From positions 192,001-256,000 of the forward strand of contig JBCCHT010000010.1 of assembly GCA_039028615.1 (NCBI GenBank): DNA of 64,000 nucleotides. The letters run 5' to 3'. This document shows positions 12,356-27,065 of the stretch, one piece after another; within the stretch, counting starts at the first letter, position 1; the number at the start of each line of letters is the position of its first letter. Origin of the DNA: Myxococcota bacterium (GTDB taxonomy: Bacteria > Myxococcota_A > Polyangia > Nannocystales > Nannocystaceae). The position numbers and the translations under genes were made by a program. The notes under the pieces were generated by a model, which searched no databases, had not been told where the DNA came from, and saw nothing but the letters and a program-made list of their open reading frames with translations.

Positions 12356-13228
12356 TTACGCCAGCGGCAGGCCTTCGTCGCCGCGCTTCTTGTACGCCCC
12401 GCCGTCCTTGAGCTTGCGCGCCGCGGTGAAGACCTGCACGGGCTCGTCGAGCGGAGCCTCGGGCATCTCGCGGCGCAACGTGGCGATGAGCTCGGCCGAC
12501 TGGCTCCGCAAGAAGGGGTTGGTCTGTCGCTCTCGGCCCAGCTGCGAGGGGACGGTGCATCGCCCCTGGGCTCGGGTGGCCCACACTTCGCGAATGCGCT
12601 CGGCCAGGACCGCGTTGCCCGGCTCCAGCGCCCACGCAAAGCGCAGGTTGTCCTGGGTGTACTCGTGCGCGCAGCAGATGCGGGTGTGGTCGGGCAGCGC
12701 GGCCAGCCGCTGCAGGCTGTCGTGCATCTTGGCGGGTGGGCCGTCGAACAGCCGCCCGCAGCCCCCGGCGAAGAGCGTGTCGCCACACAGCAGGATGTCG
12801 TCGAACACGTACGACACGTGCCCGTCGATGTGCCCCTCGGTGAGCATCACGCGGCCTTCGCAGGCGCCCAGCCGCACGGTGTCGCCCTCCGCGACGCCTT
12901 CGGTCAGGCCGGGAATCTCCGCTGCCCGGGCCTGGGCCCCGACCACCCGCAGCTCCGCCAGGCGACCGCGCTTTTCGAGGTCGCGATTGACCCCGATGTG
13001 GTCGGGATGGGTATGCGTGTTGAAGACGGTGGTGAGCGTCAGGCCGTGGGCCTCGCAGTACTCGAGCACGCTGCCCGCTTCGGGCCCGTCGACCACCGCC
13101 GTCTCGCCCGTCTCGTTGCACGTGACCAGCCAGATGAGGTTGTCGATCCACGAGGGGACCTGATGCACGGTGAGCCGTCCATCGCGGGAGGTGAAGGGGG
13201 CATGGGGCTCGGTGACGACGTGTTGCAT
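12356..13228 (-). CDS. gloB: Hydroxyacylglutathione hydrolase (glyoxalase II)
   Basis: THTHPDHIG, GHIDGH, CGDTLFAGGCGRLFDG, CAHEYTQDNLRFA, ERQTNPFLR. Start 13228 or 13234. Confidence 0.9.
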   Translation of the reverse strand: MQHVVTEPHAPFTSRDGRLTVHQVPSWIDNLIWLVTCNETGETAVVDGPEAGSVLEYCEAHGLTLTTVFNTHTHPDHIGVNRDLEKRGRLAELRVVGAQARAAEIPGLTEGVAEGDTVRLGACEGRVMLTEGHIDGHVSYVFDDILLCGDTLFAGGCGRLFDGPPAKMHDSLQRLAALPDHTRICCAHEYTQDNLRFAWALEPGNAVLAERIREVWATRAQGRCTVPSQLGRERQTNPFLRSQSAELIATLRREMPEAPLDEPVQVFTAARKLKDGGAYKKRGDEGLPLA

Positions 13229-13372
13229 GGCCACGGAGAGGCGAGCATACACGCCGGATCGGGACGGCCCGCGGCGGAGCGGGCGCGAATACGCGTTCGG
13301 GGGCTCGGTGGTCGTGCCCGGCGGCGATGATGACCGATGGGGACCCGGCTGCTAGGGTCTGGGCCCCTCGCG

Positions 13373-14155
13373 ATGATCCGTCTGCTCCGCAAGCTCACCG
13401 TCGAACAATGGGCGGCCATCGATCGTGACTACCGCGATCGCGAGCTGCCCGACTCGCGGGTCATGTGGATCCTGCTGACGATCACCCTCTGCCTGGTCCT
13501 GCCGCGCTACTTCGGCAACCCGAGCTTCATCGACAGCATCCCCGCCGCCAAGAAGCTGTTCGCCACGTGGCCGCACCCGACGCTTTGGCCCAAGCTGTAC
13601 TGGGCGGGCTTCAAGTTCATCAACTACCTGCTGGTCCCGATACTCGCCATCAAGTTCCTGCTGAAGGAATCGGTGCTCGACCACGGGCTACGGCCCACCC
13701 GCGAGGGCAAGGTCTGGCTGCTCTACCTGGCGATGTTCTTGGTGGTGGTGCCCATGGCCTACGGGGCCTCGTTCACCGACAGCTTCATCCGCACCTACCC
13801 CAAGTATCGGTACGCGGGGGCGTCGTGGGAGCAGCTCATCGCCTGGGAGTTCGGCTACGGTTTTCAGTTCTTCGCGCTGGAGTTCTTCTTCCGCGGCTTC
13901 TTGCTCTTCGCGCTGGCGCGCTACATCGGCTCGGCCGCGATCTTCGTGATGGTGGTGCCCTACGCGATGATCCACTTCAGCAAGCCGCTGGCGGAGACGC
14001 TGGGCTCGGTGCTGGCCGGCATGGCGCTGGGCACCATCGCGCTGCGCACCCGCTCCATCTACGGGGGCGTGGCCGTGCACTGCGGGGTGGCGTGGGCGAT
14101 GGACCTGTTTGCGATGCTGCGCAAGGGGCAGATTCAGCACCTCTTCGAAGAATGA
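13373..14155 (+). CDS. CPBP-family (Abi/CAAX type II) intramembrane glutamic protease
   Basis: Multiple TM helices; LEFFFRGF, MIHFSKP, RTRSIYGGVAVH. Confidence 0.85.
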   Translation: MIRLLRKLTVEQWAAIDRDYRDRELPDSRVMWILLTITLCLVLPRYFGNPSFIDSIPAAKKLFATWPHPTLWPKLYWAGFKFINYLLVPILAIKFLLKESVLDHGLRPTREGKVWLLYLAMFLVVVPMAYGASFTDSFIRTYPKYRYAGASWEQLIAWEFGYGFQFFALEFFFRGFLLFALARYIGSAAIFVMVVPYAMIHFSKPLAETLGSVLAGMALGTIALRTRSIYGGVAVHCGVAWAMDLFAMLRKGQIQHLFEE

Positions 14156-20582: not shown

Positions 20583-21845
20583 TCACAGCGTTTCGTCGTC
20601 GCGCCCCGCCTCGTCGAGAAGCCGGGCGCCTTCCATCAACAGGTGCGTGGTGGACGACTGCACGGTGTCTTCGACGTCGACGGTGGTGACGCTGAAGCTG
20701 AAGGTGCCGGCCTGCCACGACAGCATGTGATAGATGCACTCGCGTCCGGGCAGGTCGGGCTGGCCATCGATGCGCGCCGACACGACGCGTCCGCCTCGCA
20801 AGAAGACCTGGCCCATCTTGTCGCTGCCCGGCTTCATCAGGCTGAGCACGCCCTGCTTGCGCTCCATCTCCATCATCATGAGGAGGCTGGACAGACCGAG
20901 CTGCTCGAGCTTGCCGTGCAAGCCGGTGGCGCGACGCGGTCGTTGCTTGTTGCTGGGCGGGCGCGGCGTGTGGGGCTCGCTGGGCGGAGGGACGGACCCT
21001 GCGGCGCCCGGGTAGGGCGGAGGCTGTCCCGGTTGGCCTGGCTGCCCCGGTTGCCCGGGCTGACCCGGCGGCGGGTACTGACCGGGATACTGGCCGTACT
21101 GCGGCGGGTACTGGCCCGGATACTGCGGCGGGTACTGGCCCGGATACTGGCCGTACTGCGGCGGGTACTGACCGGGGTACTGCGCGGGCGGGTACGGGTA
21201 CGGAGCCGTGGGCATGGGGTGCACGCCCGAGTTGTGGTTCTGCGGGGGTGCGGGCGGGTAGCCCGGAGGCGGGTGACCACCCGGAGCGCCTTGGCCCGCG
21301 GGCGGGTAGCCCGGCAGCGTGTGCACGCCCGAGTTGTGGTTGGGCGGCGGACCGGGGATGGCATGCACACCCGAGTTGTGGTTCTGCGGGATCTGGTGCA
21401 CGCCCGACGCGTGGGTCTGCGTGGGCACGTTGTGCACGCCCGAGCTCGAGCCGCCCCCATACGCGGGCGGGTTCTGGCGACTGGTGAGCGCCGCGTCGAC
21501 CCGACGCTCGAGGTCTTCGAAGCGGAAGGGCTTGGCCAGGTAGTCCTCTTCCGTCATCCCGAGCGAGCGCAGCTTGGCTTCGTCCTTGCCGAGCGCGGTG
21601 AGGAAGATGACCGGGATGGTCGCGTATCGCGGGTTTTGCCGGAGCTGCTTGATGAACGTCCACCCGTCCATCACCGGCATCATGACGTCGCTGATGATGA
21701 CGTCGGGCGCATGGGCACCCACTCGGTCCAGCGCTTGCCGACCGTCCCTCGCGGTGTCCACGGTGAAGCTCCGCTTCCTCAGAGAGGCGGTGACCATCCG
21801 TAGAATCCACGGGTCATCGTCGACCACCAGGATTCGAGCGCCCAT
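20583..21845 (-). CDS. Response regulator: receiver, P/Q/Y/G-rich linker and DUF4388 domain
   Basis: ILVVDDD, IISDVMMPVMDG, FLTA, YLAKPF; C-terminal LHGKLEQLGLSSLLMMMEMERKQGVL...WQAGTFSF...LLMEGARLLDE. Confidence 0.9.
   Translation of the reverse strand: MGARILVVDDDPWILRMVTASLRKRSFTVDTARDGRQALDRVGAHAPDVIISDVMMPVMDGWTFIKQLRQNPRYATIPVIFLTALGKDEAKLRSLGMTEEDYLAKPFRFEDLERRVDAALTSRQNPPAYGGGSSSGVHNVPTQTHASGVHQIPQNHNSGVHAIPGPPPNHNSGVHTLPGYPPAGQGAPGGHPPPGYPPAPPQNHNSGVHPMPTAPYPYPPAQYPGQYPPQYGQYPGQYPPQYPGQYPPQYGQYPGQYPPPGQPGQPGQPGQPGQPPPYPGAAGSVPPPSEPHTPRPPSNKQRPRRATGLHGKLEQLGLSSLLMMMEMERKQGVLSLMKPGSDKMGQVFLRGGRVVSARIDGQPDLPGRECIYHMLSWQAGTFSFSVTTVDVEDTVQSSTTHLLMEGARLLDEAGRDDETL
21035..21445 (-). repeat. 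Coding low-complexity repeats: SGVHxxP x5, QYP(P/G) arrays, (PGQ)n
   Basis: Recurrent DNA units such as TACTGCGGCGGGTACTG and CAC(G/A)CCCGAGTTGTGGTT are visible on the + strand. Confidence 0.85.
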
Positions 21846-21855
21846 TCGCTTGGCT

Positions 21856-21884
21856 AGCGTAGGCCGCGCCCAATGGGGTGTCAA
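21856..21884 (-). promoter_or_regulatory. Sigma70-type promoter of the REC-DUF4388 gene
   Basis: TTGACA (21884-21879), 17 nt, TACGCT (21861-21856), 10 nt before the ATG. Confidence 0.75.
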
Positions 21885-22061: not shown

Positions 22062-23531
22062 TCACGTGGGTTCGATTCGGGTGAGCCAACTAGGCCGTAC
22101 CTGCGCCCACATCACCTCCGCCACTTGCCCCAGCTTGGTTCGCGCGAGGCGGGCAGCACCGCGGGCTCGTCGAACGCGATCGCCCATCGGATACATCGAG
22201 GCGTGACGCGGGACGAAGCTGCTGCCGAGCGCATGGCGAGCGGTCTTGAGGTACTCGGTGAGGAACACGTGGGGCCGTCGCTCCGAGCACGACAGCAGCG
22301 CCATCGAGCGACTGCGGGCCGTGTCGCCGCTGCCCCAGTAGCCGAACAGCGCGCGGCGGATGGCTCGGGTGCCGTCCTCGCCTCCGCGGAAGGCCTCGTA
22401 GATCGCCTTGGCCAGCGCCTGGCGGGTGGGCACGTAGCGGTCGTGCTCCGAGCGATAGCGTCGCAGGGACTCGGCGTCGAACCAGGCCTCGCCCGCGGGC
22501 ACGTGGGAGCGGCGTCGGGCCTGCTCCCCGAGGGTCTCCGCGTCGCGTAGGCCCATGGTCATGCCGCTGGCGGTGATGGGGTGGGAGCACCCCGCCGCAT
22601 CGCCCACGAGCACCAGACCGGGCATGGCGGCCGAGGGCGCGGGCAGGTCGACGGTGGGCGCCATGTGCAGCGGCCCGCGATGCTCGGTGATGGCGGCGGC
22701 GAGCTCGGCCGACAGCGGCGCGGGCACGAAGGGCACGTAGGTGCGGATCAAGTAGTCCTTGAGCGCCTCGCCCTTGGCCGGCAGGTGGTGCGGCAAGTCG
22801 ATGGTGACCCGGGTGATGACCGTGCCATCGTCCTCGCGCAGGATCGGATAGGCCAACACGGGGCCCCAGGCGCCGAGGAACACATGGGCGTAGCCCGGTC
22901 GGGGCAGCGTGGCGTTGCGCAGCTCGACGCCCGCGGTGAAGCCGATGGTCTCGCGCCCTTCGTCGGAAATCCCGGCCATCTTGCGGACCGAGCTGCTCTT
23001 GCCGTCGGCCGCGATCACCAGGTCGGCTCGGACCTCGCACCGAGGGGAGTTCCGATTGTGCAGCGCGACGCCGTCGATGCGGTCGCCGTCGCGGAGCAGG
23101 TCGCCGACCGACCAACCCTCGAGCAGCTCCACATGGTCGCGTCGGATGTCCGCCCGCAGGGTTCGCACCAGCTGCTTGTGGTGTATCGACAGGCCGCGGG
23201 GGCGCTCGTCGGGGACCTTGGCGTAGCTGAGGTCCACGAAGCGGGCGTCGGCGTTCTCGTAGACGGCGAAGCCTCCGACCTCCACGCCCCCCACTGCATG
23301 CAGCGCGGAGAACAGCCCGAGGTCGTCGAGGATCTGGGCACCGCGGGGGTGGATGAGCTCGCCGGAGAAGCGCGGGTGCACGTCGGGGTGACGGTCGACC
23401 ACGAGGATCCGGCGCTGCTTGGCGCTGTCGGCCTGCGCGAGCGCCCGGGCGGTGGCGCAGCCGGCCAGGCCCGCCCCCACGATGATGGCGTCGTAGCGTT
23501 GGTGACGAAGCGGGGGGCGGTTTTCGGTCAT
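22062..23531 (-). CDS. Squalene epoxidase (squalene monooxygenase)-like FAD-dependent monooxygenase
   Basis: GAGLAG; RFSGELIHPRG (compare SQLE GEFLQPGG); ADGKSSSVRK; GPVLAYPI..TRVTID; GDAAGCSHPITASGMTMGLRD (compare [21 protein letters not shown]); LAKAIYEAF..IRRALFGYW. Reference motifs recalled from memory. Confidence 0.85.
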   Translation of the reverse strand: MTENRPPLRHQRYDAIIVGAGLAGCATARALAQADSAKQRRILVVDRHPDVHPRFSGELIHPRGAQILDDLGLFSALHAVGGVEVGGFAVYENADARFVDLSYAKVPDERPRGLSIHHKQLVRTLRADIRRDHVELLEGWSVGDLLRDGDRIDGVALHNRNSPRCEVRADLVIAADGKSSSVRKMAGISDEGRETIGFTAGVELRNATLPRPGYAHVFLGAWGPVLAYPILREDDGTVITRVTIDLPHHLPAKGEALKDYLIRTYVPFVPAPLSAELAAAITEHRGPLHMAPTVDLPAPSAAMPGLVLVGDAAGCSHPITASGMTMGLRDAETLGEQARRRSHVPAGEAWFDAESLRRYRSEHDRYVPTRQALAKAIYEAFRGGEDGTRAIRRALFGYWGSGDTARSRSMALLSCSERRPHVFLTEYLKTARHALGSSFVPRHASMYPMGDRVRRARGAARLARTKLGQVAEVMWAQVRPSWLTRIEPT

Positions 23532-23539
23532 GGCGTCTC

Positions 23540-25525
23540 TCAACGAGTGGTGGCCTGGAGGTAGGCGTCGAGGGCGAGGGCGGCCTCGCGGGGTCCCGCG
23601 CTCGGGTCGAAGCCAGCGGGGCTCAGGCCGAGTCCGCGGGCGACGGGGCGCGACCAGGTCTCGAGCTGGCGCGCGGGGCAGTGCTGGACGTGGTCGGCGA
23701 GCCAGTCGGCGGCGCGCTCGGCCTGGACGTCGGGTCGGCCCAGGGCGAGCAGGCCTCGTAGCGCGTGCGCCGTGTCGGTGCTGGAGCCGAAGCTGCCGTC
23801 CTCGAGCTGGCGCGCGCGGAGGCGTCGGTCCAGCTGTTGGACCAGCGGGTTCGAGGCGGGGCACAGGGCGCCCACGGCTCGGGCGAGCACCGCGGTGGTC
23901 TCCAGGGGGCCGATGGTCGCGTGCTCGTGCAGCTGCGGCACCACGGCGCGCTCGAGCCAACGCAAGCCGCGGGTCACCCGATCGTCGTCGAGGCCGAAGC
24001 CGGCGTCGGCCAGGGTGGCGAGCACGTGGGCGCTCAGGTGTACGTGCTCGGCGTCATTGGGGCGGCCGTAGGCGAGCAGGTCGGCGTCGGACCAGGGCAG
24101 GTGCCGCATGGCCACCGCGGACTCGCCCCGTTCGAAGCGAGCGAAGCGGCCGTCCGACTCCTGCATCGCGAACAGCACGTCGAGCGCACGGCGAGCCGAG
24201 GCCCACGACGCGGTCACCTGCGGGTGATCCTTGGGCAGGGTGGCCAGCGCCTCGAGCACGGCGCAGGTGCTCTGCACGTCGACGTGGTGGGTGGCACCGG
24301 GCTCGTGGGGCCAGCCGCCCGTGGCCGCGTCGGCGCGTGCCTGCCAGGGGCCGCGGGTGGTGAGCTCTTGGTGCAGCAGCCACCCGATCTCGCGGTCGTT
24401 GGCCCCGCAGGCGAGCAGCCGACCGGCGTGGGCGAGCGAGGCTCCGCCGAGCCCCTGCGCGAGGGCGGTCTCTCCCGCGCCGCGCCCCTGAGGCACACGA
24501 ATGCGGCCTCGGCAACGTCGGAGGTGATCGAGGCCACGCCGCAGCCGGAGATCGTGCGACACGACGCCCATCACGCGCAGGGCCACGAGGCTCAGCAGGG
24601 TGGGGCGCAGGGAGAACCATCCGCCGTGGCCTTGCTGGTGCTCGTCGATCCAGGTGAGCTCGCGTCTCGTCGCCAGCTCGGGCAGCGGTCCTCGCGGGAG
24701 CTTGCGGGCCAGCTTCACCGTGCGGTCGAAGGCCTGCAGCAGGTCGCCGGCCAGCCCCGGTCGCGTCAGGCGGGGGGCCATCGGCTCGCCGTCGTTGCGC
24801 GGGAGCAGCAGCGGGGTCGCGTCGGGCAGGTGCAAGAACGCGGGCGCGCGAGCGATGAGCTGGTACGGGGTCAGCACGCCACGGGCCCACGCCGAGAACC
24901 GAGCGGGCGACAGGGCCAGCTGCGGCGGCAGCAGGAACAGCTCGCTGGGGATCGCGGGCAGCCAGCTCCAGGGGATCTGTCCGCCCATCGCGAGCCACAG
25001 CCGCACCGAGAAGCTGGCCCGCTGCGCTCCGCCCAGGCGGTGCACGACCCGGCTGGCTCGCAGCATGGGCTCACTGTCGATGTCGTCGCCCGCGTCGCGC
25101 AGCACCCACCACCCCAAGGTCGTCAGGGACAGATCGGGGTTGCCCTGCGCGTCGAGCCAGGCTCCGCTGTCGTCTTGGGCTCCGCGCACGAACGCGGTGA
25201 GGCCCGTGCGCTCGTCGGGGCGCAGATCGTGGAAGAGACGATCGGCGAGCAGGACCTCGCAGGTCGGGCCGATGTCCGGCACGTGCAGCAGCCACCGCGG
25301 CGTGTCGTCCCGGGTACCCAGACCTGCGCGTTCGCGCCATTGCCCCGCGTGCTCGCGAGCTCGGTCGGCGGCCACCTCGAGAGGAGAGCGGCCGTAGTCG
25401 ACATGGAGAGAGGCGGCGGGTTGCTTGGAATCCAGCATGGAGGAAAGCCAGGTCGGAAGGGAGACGAGCCGAGATCCAGCGGAAGCAGCGCGGGGGCGAT
25501 GCTGCAGATTCGGCTTCATCGCCAC
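23540..25525 (-). CDS. Squalene-hopene cyclase homologue with degenerate catalytic motif (DVQST instead of DXDDT)
   Basis: Collinear with SHC: QDDSGAW..PDLSLT, EPMLRA..GG, RLWLAMGGQIPW..P.EL, FSAWARG, QQGHGGW, GGW...DVQSTCAV, MQESDGRF, SAHVL, QLEDGSFG, TAHAL. Start 25525 or 25519 after AAGGGGG. Confidence 0.85.
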   Translation of the reverse strand: MAMKPNLQHRPRAASAGSRLVSLPTWLSSMLDSKQPAASLHVDYGRSPLEVAADRAREHAGQWRERAGLGTRDDTPRWLLHVPDIGPTCEVLLADRLFHDLRPDERTGLTAFVRGAQDDSGAWLDAQGNPDLSLTTLGWWVLRDAGDDIDSEPMLRASRVVHRLGGAQRASFSVRLWLAMGGQIPWSWLPAIPSELFLLPPQLALSPARFSAWARGVLTPYQLIARAPAFLHLPDATPLLLPRNDGEPMAPRLTRPGLAGDLLQAFDRTVKLARKLPRGPLPELATRRELTWIDEHQQGHGGWFSLRPTLLSLVALRVMGVVSHDLRLRRGLDHLRRCRGRIRVPQGRGAGETALAQGLGGASLAHAGRLLACGANDREIGWLLHQELTTRGPWQARADAATGGWPHEPGATHHVDVQSTCAVLEALATLPKDHPQVTASWASARRALDVLFAMQESDGRFARFERGESAVAMRHLPWSDADLLAYGRPNDAEHVHLSAHVLATLADAGFGLDDDRVTRGLRWLERAVVPQLHEHATIGPLETTAVLARAVGALCPASNPLVQQLDRRLRARQLEDGSFGSSTDTAHALRGLLALGRPDVQAERAADWLADHVQHCPARQLETWSRPVARGLGLSPAGFDPSAGPREAALALDAYLQATTR

Positions 25526-25742: not shown

Positions 25743-26375
25743 ATGCTCGTCAAGCTCCTCCGTTCGAAAGCCCTTGCCGCTCTCCCGGTGCTTCTCGTTG
25801 CTCCTCTCGTGACCGGTTGCGACGAAGAGCCCGAGAGCCTCGAGCATGGATTCGTCAACGTCGAGTTCAAGCGGGGGCAGTCGGAGGAGACCAGCCCCTA
25901 CACCGGCACCTCGACGGTCCAGATCACGCTGCTGTATCGCGAGTGCCTGATCGCGTTCTACGACGCCAATCCTCAGTACCAGCAGCTCGGTGAAGACGGC
26001 GAACCGGTGTTCGGCGCCCGTGACCTGGGCGGCGAGGGCTGGTTCGATCGCCTCTGCGACGAGCGGAGCGGTCAGGCGGACTGCACCGTGCTCGAGTTCC
26101 GACAGGAGCTCGACCAGGCGTCGCAGCTCACCATCGAGTACGAGATCAACGGTGACCTCGAGGACCGGGTGCTGCCCTTCGGCCCCATTCCCACCGAGGA
26201 GCTGGCGAGCTGCGCCGCGGGTGGTCAGCCCATCGTGCGCGTCGGCAGCAACGGCGCGGTGCGAGGCCTCGACGCCAACGGCGACGTCGTGTGGGCCACC
26301 GAGGCCTTCGAGCCCTCGGAGGCGGCGACCGGCCAGGGCGCGCCCATCACGATCCGCGCCGGGCGGTCCAACTAG
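25743..26375 (+). CDS. Hypothetical lipoprotein
   Basis: Lipobox LVTGC; acidic beta-rich domain. Confidence 0.75.
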   Translation: MLVKLLRSKALAALPVLLVAPLVTGCDEEPESLEHGFVNVEFKRGQSEETSPYTGTSTVQITLLYRECLIAFYDANPQYQQLGEDGEPVFGARDLGGEGWFDRLCDERSGQADCTVLEFRQELDQASQLTIEYEINGDLEDRVLPFGPIPTEELASCAAGGQPIVRVGSNGAVRGLDANGDVVWATEAFEPSEAATGQGAPITIRAGRSN

Positions 26376-26390: not shown

Positions 26391-27065
26391 ATGGCGGTGC
26401 GTCATCGATCCATTGCGTTCGGGCTGACGCTGGCCGCCTGCTCGCCGCCCAGCACCACCCAAGAAGAAGGCAAGGCTGCGCCCCGGGCCGTGGAGCCCAC
26501 CCCGGAGCCAGCTGCGTGTCTCGAGTCGGGAGCCTCCGAGATCTGGACGAGCTTCGAAGGAGGGCGCTGCGGCTTCGAGCTGCGTGAAGACGAAGAGGCG
26601 GGCGGGCTGTTGCTCGACGACCTCTCCGCGGAGGTGCCCGGCTCCCCCGCGGGCGAGGCTCCCGAGGCCTGTCGCGACCGCACCTGCGTGTACGAGGGCA
26701 TCGCCACCGTGGCCGGCCCCCTCGTGCTCGCGGTCGCGCCGTCTTCCGATAGCGGCATGCCTTCGGGTGTGTTCCTCGGCTACGTGGCGGAGGGGCGGCT
26801 CGTGTTCGTGGACCTGTGGGAGGACGCCGGCGATCCCGTGCAGACCGACTACACGCGGGTGGGGCCTGCTCATGCGCTCGCCCCCTTCGTCTGCGAAGAC
26901 AAACTCGCCGTGCTCGCCGTGCCGCGGCTCGAAGCCGCCCGAGGTCTCGAGCCGCCCCAGCGCTTGCAGGCACGCGAAGGTCGACTGGACGCGGCGGGCT
27001 CGAGCACTGCGCTCGCGCCCGAGGCTCGGGCCGGGTGCGAAGCCGTCGCGCTACCGGTTCCCTGA
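26391..27065 (+). CDS. Hypothetical lipoprotein
   Basis: Lipobox LAAC; several Cys; 15 nt after the previous stop. Confidence 0.7.
   Translation: MAVRHRSIAFGLTLAACSPPSTTQEEGKAAPRAVEPTPEPAACLESGASEIWTSFEGGRCGFELREDEEAGGLLLDDLSAEVPGSPAGEAPEACRDRTCVYEGIATVAGPLVLAVAPSSDSGMPSGVFLGYVAEGRLVFVDLWEDAGDPVQTDYTRVGPAHALAPFVCEDKLAVLAVPRLEAARGLEPPQRLQAREGRLDAAGSSTALAPEARAGCEAVALPVP

Follow-up and report, generated by a model that had tools for sequence, protein, structure and literature searches.

Background

In the myxobacterium Plesiocystis pacifica, the squalene epoxidase (SE) gene ERG1 adjoins a homologue of squalene-hopene cyclase (SHC), an arrangement called puzzling in 2009, when relaxed constraint was suggested (Desmond and Gribaldo, PMC2817430). 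The epoxidases of P. pacifica and Enhygromyxa salina were later reported to be contiguous to an undefined SHC-like enzyme, and among SHC-like proteins only the planctomycete ones to retain the critical residues (Santana-Molina 2020, PMC7306690). The loss of catalytic residues is noted in these two papers and their accessible text offers no function. Here, we analyzed such a pair in a 64,000-nucleotide stretch of the genome of a Myxococcota bacterium of the family Nannocystaceae (assembly GCA_039028615.1, contig JBCCHT010000010.1, positions 192,001 to 256,000; hereafter the window). A preliminary description of the locus had stated that no example of the pairing was described. In fact, both papers had reported the pairing, and with it the degeneration of the active site. 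Relative to their accessible text, the new elements are a family-wide survey, a selection test, the joint loss of the two genes, and a predicted complex. P. pacifica SIR-1 and three strains of E. salina carry an orthologue with the SE directly downstream, as in the window.

Uncharacterised myxobacterial proteins resembling oxidosqualene cyclase (OSC), shorter than OSC and without the XXDC motif, have also been reported (Hoshino and Gaucher 2021, PMC8237579), and their identity with the present family could not be confirmed from the accessible text. We found no mention of the family in the accessible text of McShea 2025 (PMC12414744) and no function for it in that of PMC12004948, PMC6226438, and bioRxiv 2025.07.29.667474. 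No test of the protein or its complex was found in a literature search that was short on subscription journals, bioRxiv supplements, and figures. In mammals, the delivery of substrate to human SQLE needs a lipid-transfer protein, and supernatant protein factor (SEC14L2) has been proposed as a non-catalytic lipid-binding helper that brings squalene to the enzyme, whose N-terminal domain is lipid-sensing and regulatory (PMC6384927).

We consider it somewhat probable that the SHC-like protein of the window, hereafter the pseudo-cyclase, acts as a dead subunit of the epoxidase that docks it at the membrane and passes lipid through the old cyclase channel.

An SHC fold with a degenerate active site

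The pseudo-cyclase carries the Pfam domains SQHop_cyclase_N and SQHop_cyclase_C. Its AlphaFold2 model (predicted local distance difference test, pLDDT, of 92.9) has 2SQC as top fold match, with a template modelling (TM) score of 0.81, and shows the two alpha-barrels and QW repeats of SHC. The protein scores 161 bits against TIGR01507, missing the active-SHC threshold of 431, and 41 bits against the OSC model TIGR03463; it has no DCTAE motif and falls outside the OSC clade. The origin of the family within the SHC/OSC tree could not be placed, its stem branch being long.

Residues 51-535 of SHC are numbered here from an alignment to the Alicyclobacillus acidocaldarius enzyme, and the roles of general acid, aromatic cage, membrane plateau, and channel constriction are those we take these residues to have. 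As the preliminary description had read, the DXDDT protonation motif is replaced by DVQST, which aligns to D374-V-D376-D377-T with D376 changed to Q and D377 to S. The losses it had listed also hold: W312 is L, F365 is H, and the motifs WDT, GxWGxN, and GFPxxF, present in 53, 44, and 28 of 59 intact SHCs, are found in none of 121 homologues, which covers the GRWG segment and the C-terminal aromatics. The acid position (418) is D in 38 homologues, E in 31, L in 21, A in 10, and one of nine other residues in the rest; L, A, R, V, W, Q, S, K, and H all occur, and the residue varies inside genera. E. salina and P. pacifica have Arg there, and Nannocystis has Leu. For comparison, the position is Asp in 59 of 59 intact SHCs, by construction, as this set was picked on the DXDD motif. 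The Asp equivalents of D377 (position 419) and D447 are absent from all 121 homologues. D416 is invariant (121/121) and E90 nearly so (118/121). H451 is retained in the window (H500), as had been pointed out, but this carries no meaning because the position is variable among the 121 homologues (R 32, L 20, M 15, Q 13, A 13). Family-specific polar residues (R307, R463, R496) replace SHC residues at cavity-facing positions, and G259 of SHC corresponds to F304. To judge from these residues, the SHC-like protein is a putative catalytically dead pseudoenzyme.

Selection on the pseudo-cyclase

The median dN/dS of the pseudo-cyclase is 0.17 (range 0.03-0.32), very close to the 0.16 of the epoxidase, in 38 non-independent pairs of more than 80% identity. 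Intact reading frames occur in 14 genera, and 55 positions are near-invariant among the 121 homologues yet rare in SHCs. The best-conserved region of the family (residues 250-285; conservation 0.81 vs 0.38 in SHCs) is the counterpart of an SHC helix that presumably contacts the membrane. Overall conservation is 0.66 in the family and 0.50 in the SHCs, which are the more diverse set. Hence, the catalytic residues were lost while purifying selection persists. The preliminary description had favored selection over decay, naming intact-DXDD orthologues and a dN/dS near 1 as signs of the latter; the D377 equivalent is missing from the whole family and dN/dS is far below 1.

Decay was nevertheless the explanation at hand: a relic of SHC under relaxed constraint after sterols replaced hopanoids, as suggested in the accessible text of PMC2817430. 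The long stem branch and the missing catalytic residues fit it. The dN/dS equal to that of the epoxidase, the intact frames in 14 genera, and the 55 family-specific positions do not, and we regard this reading as already refuted for the family, with a negligible chance left to it.

Distribution and linkage to the epoxidase

Orthologues, whole or as contig-end pieces, are present in 67 of the 73 Nannocystaceae genomes. The cognate epoxidase clade occurs in 65, always accompanied by the pseudo-cyclase, which lies directly upstream and co-oriented in 64; in the last one the pair is split over two contig ends. The adjacency to epoxidases that the preliminary description proposed to look for is thus consistent. 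One genome that is 80% complete (G031 in our set) has the pseudo-cyclase at a contig end and no SE match. OSC was detected in 69 of the 73 genomes. Two collections that overlap with the 73-genome set were also scanned. One gave 63 loci, 5 of them too short, with an SE immediately 3' of the pseudo-cyclase in 57 of the 58 informative ones; the other gave 48 loci, 16 of them too short, with this arrangement in 31 of 32. The lone exception in each is a divergent copy of 39% identity that we did not count as independent.

Named homologues place the pseudo-cyclase in Nannocystaceae. A search of 401 genomes of the class and 401 of the phylum gave no orthologue beyond this family. The cyclase matches examined there have an intact DXDD in 13 of 14 (class) and 6 of 8 (phylum) cases; the pattern gave no motif report for loci L271 and L276. 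None of the eight phylum matches has an SE match nearby. A divergent cyclase with DMDSTQ (L146:1845-3806) was rejected as a family member: it keeps the D376, WDT, and D447 equivalents, and its grouping with the family is a long-branch join. Two ORFs of about 1060 residues, in genomes G034 and G015, carry cyclase-like segments (L279:3052-6228 and L280:334-3531), one of them with DTDDTG.

Six family genomes have no orthologue (G014, G015, G018, G019, G020, and G034). In the five examined (all except G020), both genes are missing, and the response regulator and upstream gene that flank the pair in other genomes lie next to each other. Neither SE nor OSC was matched in G018-G020. The other three have a different SE clade and different OSCs, in G034 as an SE-OSC fusion; the OSCs of G014 (L149:4271-6646) and G015 (L043:7377-9506) have DCTGE and DCTSE in place of DCTAE. 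In G011, the pseudo-cyclase is at the syntenic site, abutting the regulator, the cognate epoxidase is gone, and a different SE is encoded elsewhere. In a quick RpoB tree, based on one gene and with open basal forks, G011 and G034 group beside a genus with an intact pair (SH-aLRT 95), a placement that makes both cases apparent losses. For the other two pair-less lineages, loss and primary absence are both possible.

A predicted complex with the epoxidase

Complex prediction for the pseudo-cyclase (trimmed to 524 residues) and the epoxidase (475 residues) gave a score of 0.83, when the best of three controls reached 0.00. Of 157 solved complexes, 116 reach the mark for this score, as do 2 of 215 mismatched pairs; for the alignments used, these counts are only rough. 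At least 98% of contacts recur between runs, and the partners have a pLDDT of at least 85. No cyclase-epoxidase complex was found among the PDB matches to the two proteins. From this prediction, which the preliminary description had proposed, we consider binding of the pseudo-cyclase to the epoxidase quite likely. The predicted interface covers the outer beta-barrel face of the pseudo-cyclase (residues 395-401, 432-457, and 507-515, plus 201-208 and 466) and residues 220-282, 383-386, and 441-454 of the epoxidase, the last of which include the clade-specific invariants P441, H443, P448, D451, and R454. Among SE interface invariants, 5 of 16 are common to six stand-alone sister SEs, compared with 128 of 205 elsewhere (p 0.018).

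The genome without the cognate epoxidase (G011), which was outside the folded alignment, provides a natural experiment. Its pseudo-cyclase keeps 2 of the 10 family-conserved predicted-interface residues, against 95 of 110 outside the interface and the channel entrance (p 2e-5); each of the other 58 sequences has 8 or more of the 10. It also keeps 17 of 38 conserved channel-entrance residues (17 of 37 when those in the predicted interface are set aside), and the other 58 sequences at least 34. The genes next to it diverged no more than in other genera. This suggests that the docking surface and the membrane channel entrance are under selection only in the presence of the cognate epoxidase. Two other approaches were discarded: inter-protein covariation, where 73 pairs (effective number of sequences about 28) were too few for a signal, and a mirror-tree correlation (r 0.93), which reflects only shared descent.

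The epoxidase and the sterol pathway

The epoxidase is a 489-residue flavoprotein with the SE domain PF08491 and the FAD motifs GxGxxG, DG, and GD. Its top match is human SQLE by both sequence and fold (model TM 0.82). The alignment begins at residue 14, leaving no counterpart of the N-terminal regulatory domain. The Y195/Q168 pair of SQLE corresponds to F88/H61, a pair seen in 32 of 35 aligned myxobacterial SE rows, OSC-fused ones included. The genome (12.3 Mb, 68% GC, 96.7% complete) has one PF08491 match, the epoxidase of the pair, and two PF13243 matches, the pseudo-cyclase and a DCTAE OSC on another contig (G000:C5), the separate OSC that the preliminary description had suggested searching for. 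There are also five squalene/phytoene synthase matches and one ERG4/ERG24 reductase. Since the genome encodes one SE only and, separately, a DCTAE OSC, the epoxidase would be the sterol-pathway enzyme; that it epoxidises squalene we infer from the sterols of E. salina and P. pacifica. What had been presented as a new triterpenoid module would thus be the entry into a sterol pathway already known from Nannocystaceae. According to the accessible text, both species produce sterols (PMC4919349; PMC10202945) and terbinafine is said to inhibit the growth of E. salina (PMC10202945).

Some further arrangements of these genes were observed. A methyltransferase gene and a gene with an LNS2/PITM domain (L034:11381-12160 and 13036-13839) precede the OSC of the genome, and one family genome (G029) has an additional intact SHC with DNDDTA (L037:5889-7898). 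Several Polyangia encode fusions of SE and DCTAE OSC in a single ORF (L044:541-3975, in G034; L119:2483-5983; L122:6653-10108; L124:2192-6373). Polyangia also encode triple fusions of SE, a QW-repeat helical fragment resembling the OSC barrel end, and squalene synthase (L115-L118, L121, L122:1997-5473, L123), and in L120 SE and synthase are fused with the middle part absent. In the triple fusions there may be another example of a cyclase fragment that is joined to SE and has no catalytic function.

Organization of the locus

The features are listed in Table 1. The two abutting minus-strand ORFs and the GAGAG at their junction (TGA-gagacgcc-ATG) are as first described, and so is the intact 661-codon frame with GC-rich codons: the G+C content at third codon positions is 0.88 and 0.90 in the two ORFs. 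A database call starts the pseudo-cyclase at M30, giving 632 residues. From the spacing, the two genes would form one operon; in homologous pairs, 28 of 88 measurable junctions are 4-nt overlaps. No sigma-70-like promoter or minus-strand terminator was found at the locus, which is uninformative at 68% GC.

Table 1. Coordinates of the gene pair, its predicted contact surfaces, and its downstream neighbor (positions in the window)
Feature	Position	Strand	Basis or remark
Pseudo-cyclase, SHC fold, 661 aa with GTG start	23540..25525	-	ORF list, Pfam, alignment, AlphaFold2 model
Membrane plateau equivalent, amphipathic helix region, aa 250-285	24671..24778	-	alignment mapping; eroded in G011
Predicted epoxidase-binding surface, aa 395-401 (QARADAA loop)	24323..24343	-	complex prediction; deleted in G011
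Degenerate protonation motif DVQST, aa 416-420 (DXDDT in SHC)	24266..24280	-	alignment
Predicted epoxidase-binding surface, aa 432-457 helix (includes R445, R446, A453)	24155..24232	-	complex prediction
Predicted epoxidase-binding surface, aa 507-515 (G509, D514, D515)	23981..24007	-	complex prediction; lowest expected error
8-nt spacer, GAGAG across the pseudo-cyclase stop	23532..23539	-	translational coupling likely
Squalene epoxidase (monooxygenase), 489 aa	22062..23531	-	Pfam, SQLE match; only PF08491 gene of the genome
Predicted contact surface for pseudo-cyclase, epoxidase aa 220-282	22686..22874	-	complex prediction
Predicted contact, epoxidase aa 441-454, loop of C-terminal helical domain	22170..22211	-	complex prediction
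Response regulator (receiver and DUF4388), syntenic neighbor outside the module	20583..21884	-	Pfam

The response regulator has a long Pro/Gln/Tyr/Gly repeat linker (PGQYPPQY and NHNSGVH units) between its receiver and DUF4388 domains. It was rejected as a part of the module: it lies 3' of the epoxidase at only 30 of 49 informative loci and stays where the pair is gone. On the other side are two divergently transcribed lipoprotein-like genes without Pfam match (25743-26375 and 26391-27065, plus strand), syntenic across the family and kept where the pair was lost.

Possible roles of the pseudo-cyclase

If the pseudo-cyclase is a dead subunit, one operon would encode both proteins, which would assemble into a heterocomplex at the inner membrane. 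The epoxidase would dock by its substrate-binding and C-terminal domains on the outer face of the beta-barrel of the pseudo-cyclase, which, judging from conservation, keeps the monotopic membrane plateau and channel entrance of SHC and would use them to anchor its partner. Lipid would then pass between bilayer and epoxidase, most simply squalene in and possibly oxidosqualene out. The oxidosqualene would be cyclised by the DCTAE OSC encoded elsewhere, whose gene was found and whose chemistry is that of the known pathway. Of the options in the preliminary description, a pseudo-cyclase that cooperates with the epoxidase has the strongest support, from the complex score and from the erosion of interface and entrance in G011. 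A bolder version is tentative and, in our view, rather doubtful: the SHC fold was repurposed as a membrane squalene extractor, a counterpart of supernatant protein factor in an obligate two-subunit SE, in the ancestor of a family whose sterol pathway is the most eukaryote-like among bacterial families.

Several observations weigh against a dead subunit. No cyclase gene adjoins the closest SE relatives (5 loci, 38-42% identity), and the Methylococcus capsulatus enzyme forms oxidosqualene in Escherichia coli without such a partner, according to the accessible text of PMC10710732; a cyclase partner is therefore not a general requirement of SEs. The C-terminus of the epoxidase is as hydrophobic as that of other myxobacterial SEs (maximum KD19 0.5-1.2 vs 0.4-1.9), and we rejected the idea that it had lost its own membrane anchor. 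The pseudo-cyclase co-occurs also with the native OSC clade of the family and so may be linked to OSC. The predicted interface as a whole is, on average, no better conserved than the full protein (0.62 vs 0.65; 0.74 vs 0.76 in SE). The natural experiment is one genome, and the entrance segments were picked partly after it had been seen; its pseudo-cyclase (L038:7978-10068) is intact, with 696 residues and 74% of the invariants, and since it persists without the cognate SE it may have a role of its own. Finally, the binding is predicted and the lipid hand-over is deduced.

The main alternative, which we hold to be fairly unlikely, is a regulatory subunit: the pseudo-cyclase would bind the epoxidase and its cavity would sense squalene, oxidosqualene, or sterol, replacing the lipid-sensing N-terminal domain of SQLE that the bacterial enzyme does not have. 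The complex prediction and the conservation evidence fit this equally, the family-specific arginines facing the cavity would suit it, and the data at hand do not separate sensing from delivery. The only candidate signalling gene nearby, the response regulator, is not tied to the pair, and no signalling link was seen. The lipid-sensing regulator of the preliminary description thus stays viable as a subunit of the same complex and not otherwise. Less probable again is a purely structural partner, with no passage of lipid, that would help the epoxidase to fold, keep it stable, tether it, or connect it with OSC or a reductase. This agrees with the low confidence of the epoxidase C-terminal helix 449-478 when folded alone (pLDDT 55-67), with the change of G259 to F304 and the deleted segments, which could close the cavity, and with the SE fusions of other Polyangia; the conservation of entrance segments outside the predicted interface, and their erosion in G011, speak against it.

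Improbable in our estimation is a lipid-binding or membrane protein that acts on its own, sharing its regulation with the epoxidase but not binding it. Gene neighbors can pass complex prediction (7 of 44 blind neighbors did), and G011 retains the pseudo-cyclase alone, but the loss there is selective for the predicted interface and includes a clean loop deletion. Slightly more improbable still is an enzyme whose chemistry has changed so that it opens oxidosqualene or dioxidosqualene, with acyclic or partly cyclised products, as once proposed for this locus. The constancy of D416 and E90 and the Asp or Glu at the acid position of 69 of 121 homologues would allow it. However, the D374 equivalent is equally invariant in SHCs, the D377 and D447 equivalents are gone, the cation-stabilising aromatics are deleted, and the Arg that E. 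salina and P. pacifica have at the acid position, like the Leu of Nannocystis, makes the proposal unlikely.

Implications and comparison with known systems

If the pseudo-cyclase is a dead epoxidase subunit, this would explain a gene pairing called puzzling in 2009 and left without explanation in the literature found, as far as its text was accessible. Extraction of squalene from the membrane for epoxidation is described as an open question for human SQLE in the accessible text of PMC6384927, and the pair would give a structurally tractable view of how squalene leaves the bilayer midplane to reach the epoxidase. With a dead triterpene cyclase as subunit of another enzyme, the cyclase fold would have met a new fate, which bears on the reuse of hopanoid machinery at the origin of sterol synthesis in myxobacteria. 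There is also a warning for annotation: pseudo-cyclase genes, several of them named squalene-hopene cyclase, are miscounted as hopanoid cyclases. The pair could possibly be used to make oxidosqualene in engineered bacteria, and residue-level tests are possible in the cultured strains E. salina DSM 15201, P. pacifica SIR-1, and Nannocystis exedens DSM 71.

The pseudo-cyclase resembles SHC (TIGR01507; A. acidocaldarius 1SQC/2SQC) in its two-barrel fold, QW repeats, D374, W169, and membrane helix region. It differs from SHC by having no DXDD, D447, W312, F365, GRWGxNY, or C-terminal aromatics, and by its linkage to an epoxidase, the linkage of SHC to hpn genes being absent here. Set beside the OSC-like proteins described in the accessible text of PMC8237579, it scores far higher as SHC than as OSC (161 vs 41 bits) and stands on a long tree branch. 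It is comparable to supernatant protein factor in its putative role of non-catalytic helper, a functional analogy only (PMC6384927, accessible text). Unlike that soluble protein, the pseudo-cyclase has a monotopic cyclase fold and is a predicted fixed partner. The fold of supernatant protein factor is that of the Sec14 family, unrelated to the cyclase fold. Finally, as in the bacterial sqmo-osc operons and the SE-OSC fusions, an epoxidase is found beside, or fused to, a triterpene-cyclase fold. In those systems an active cyclase (DCTAE) carries out the next step of the pathway, whereas here the cyclase is apparently dead and the OSC is encoded elsewhere.

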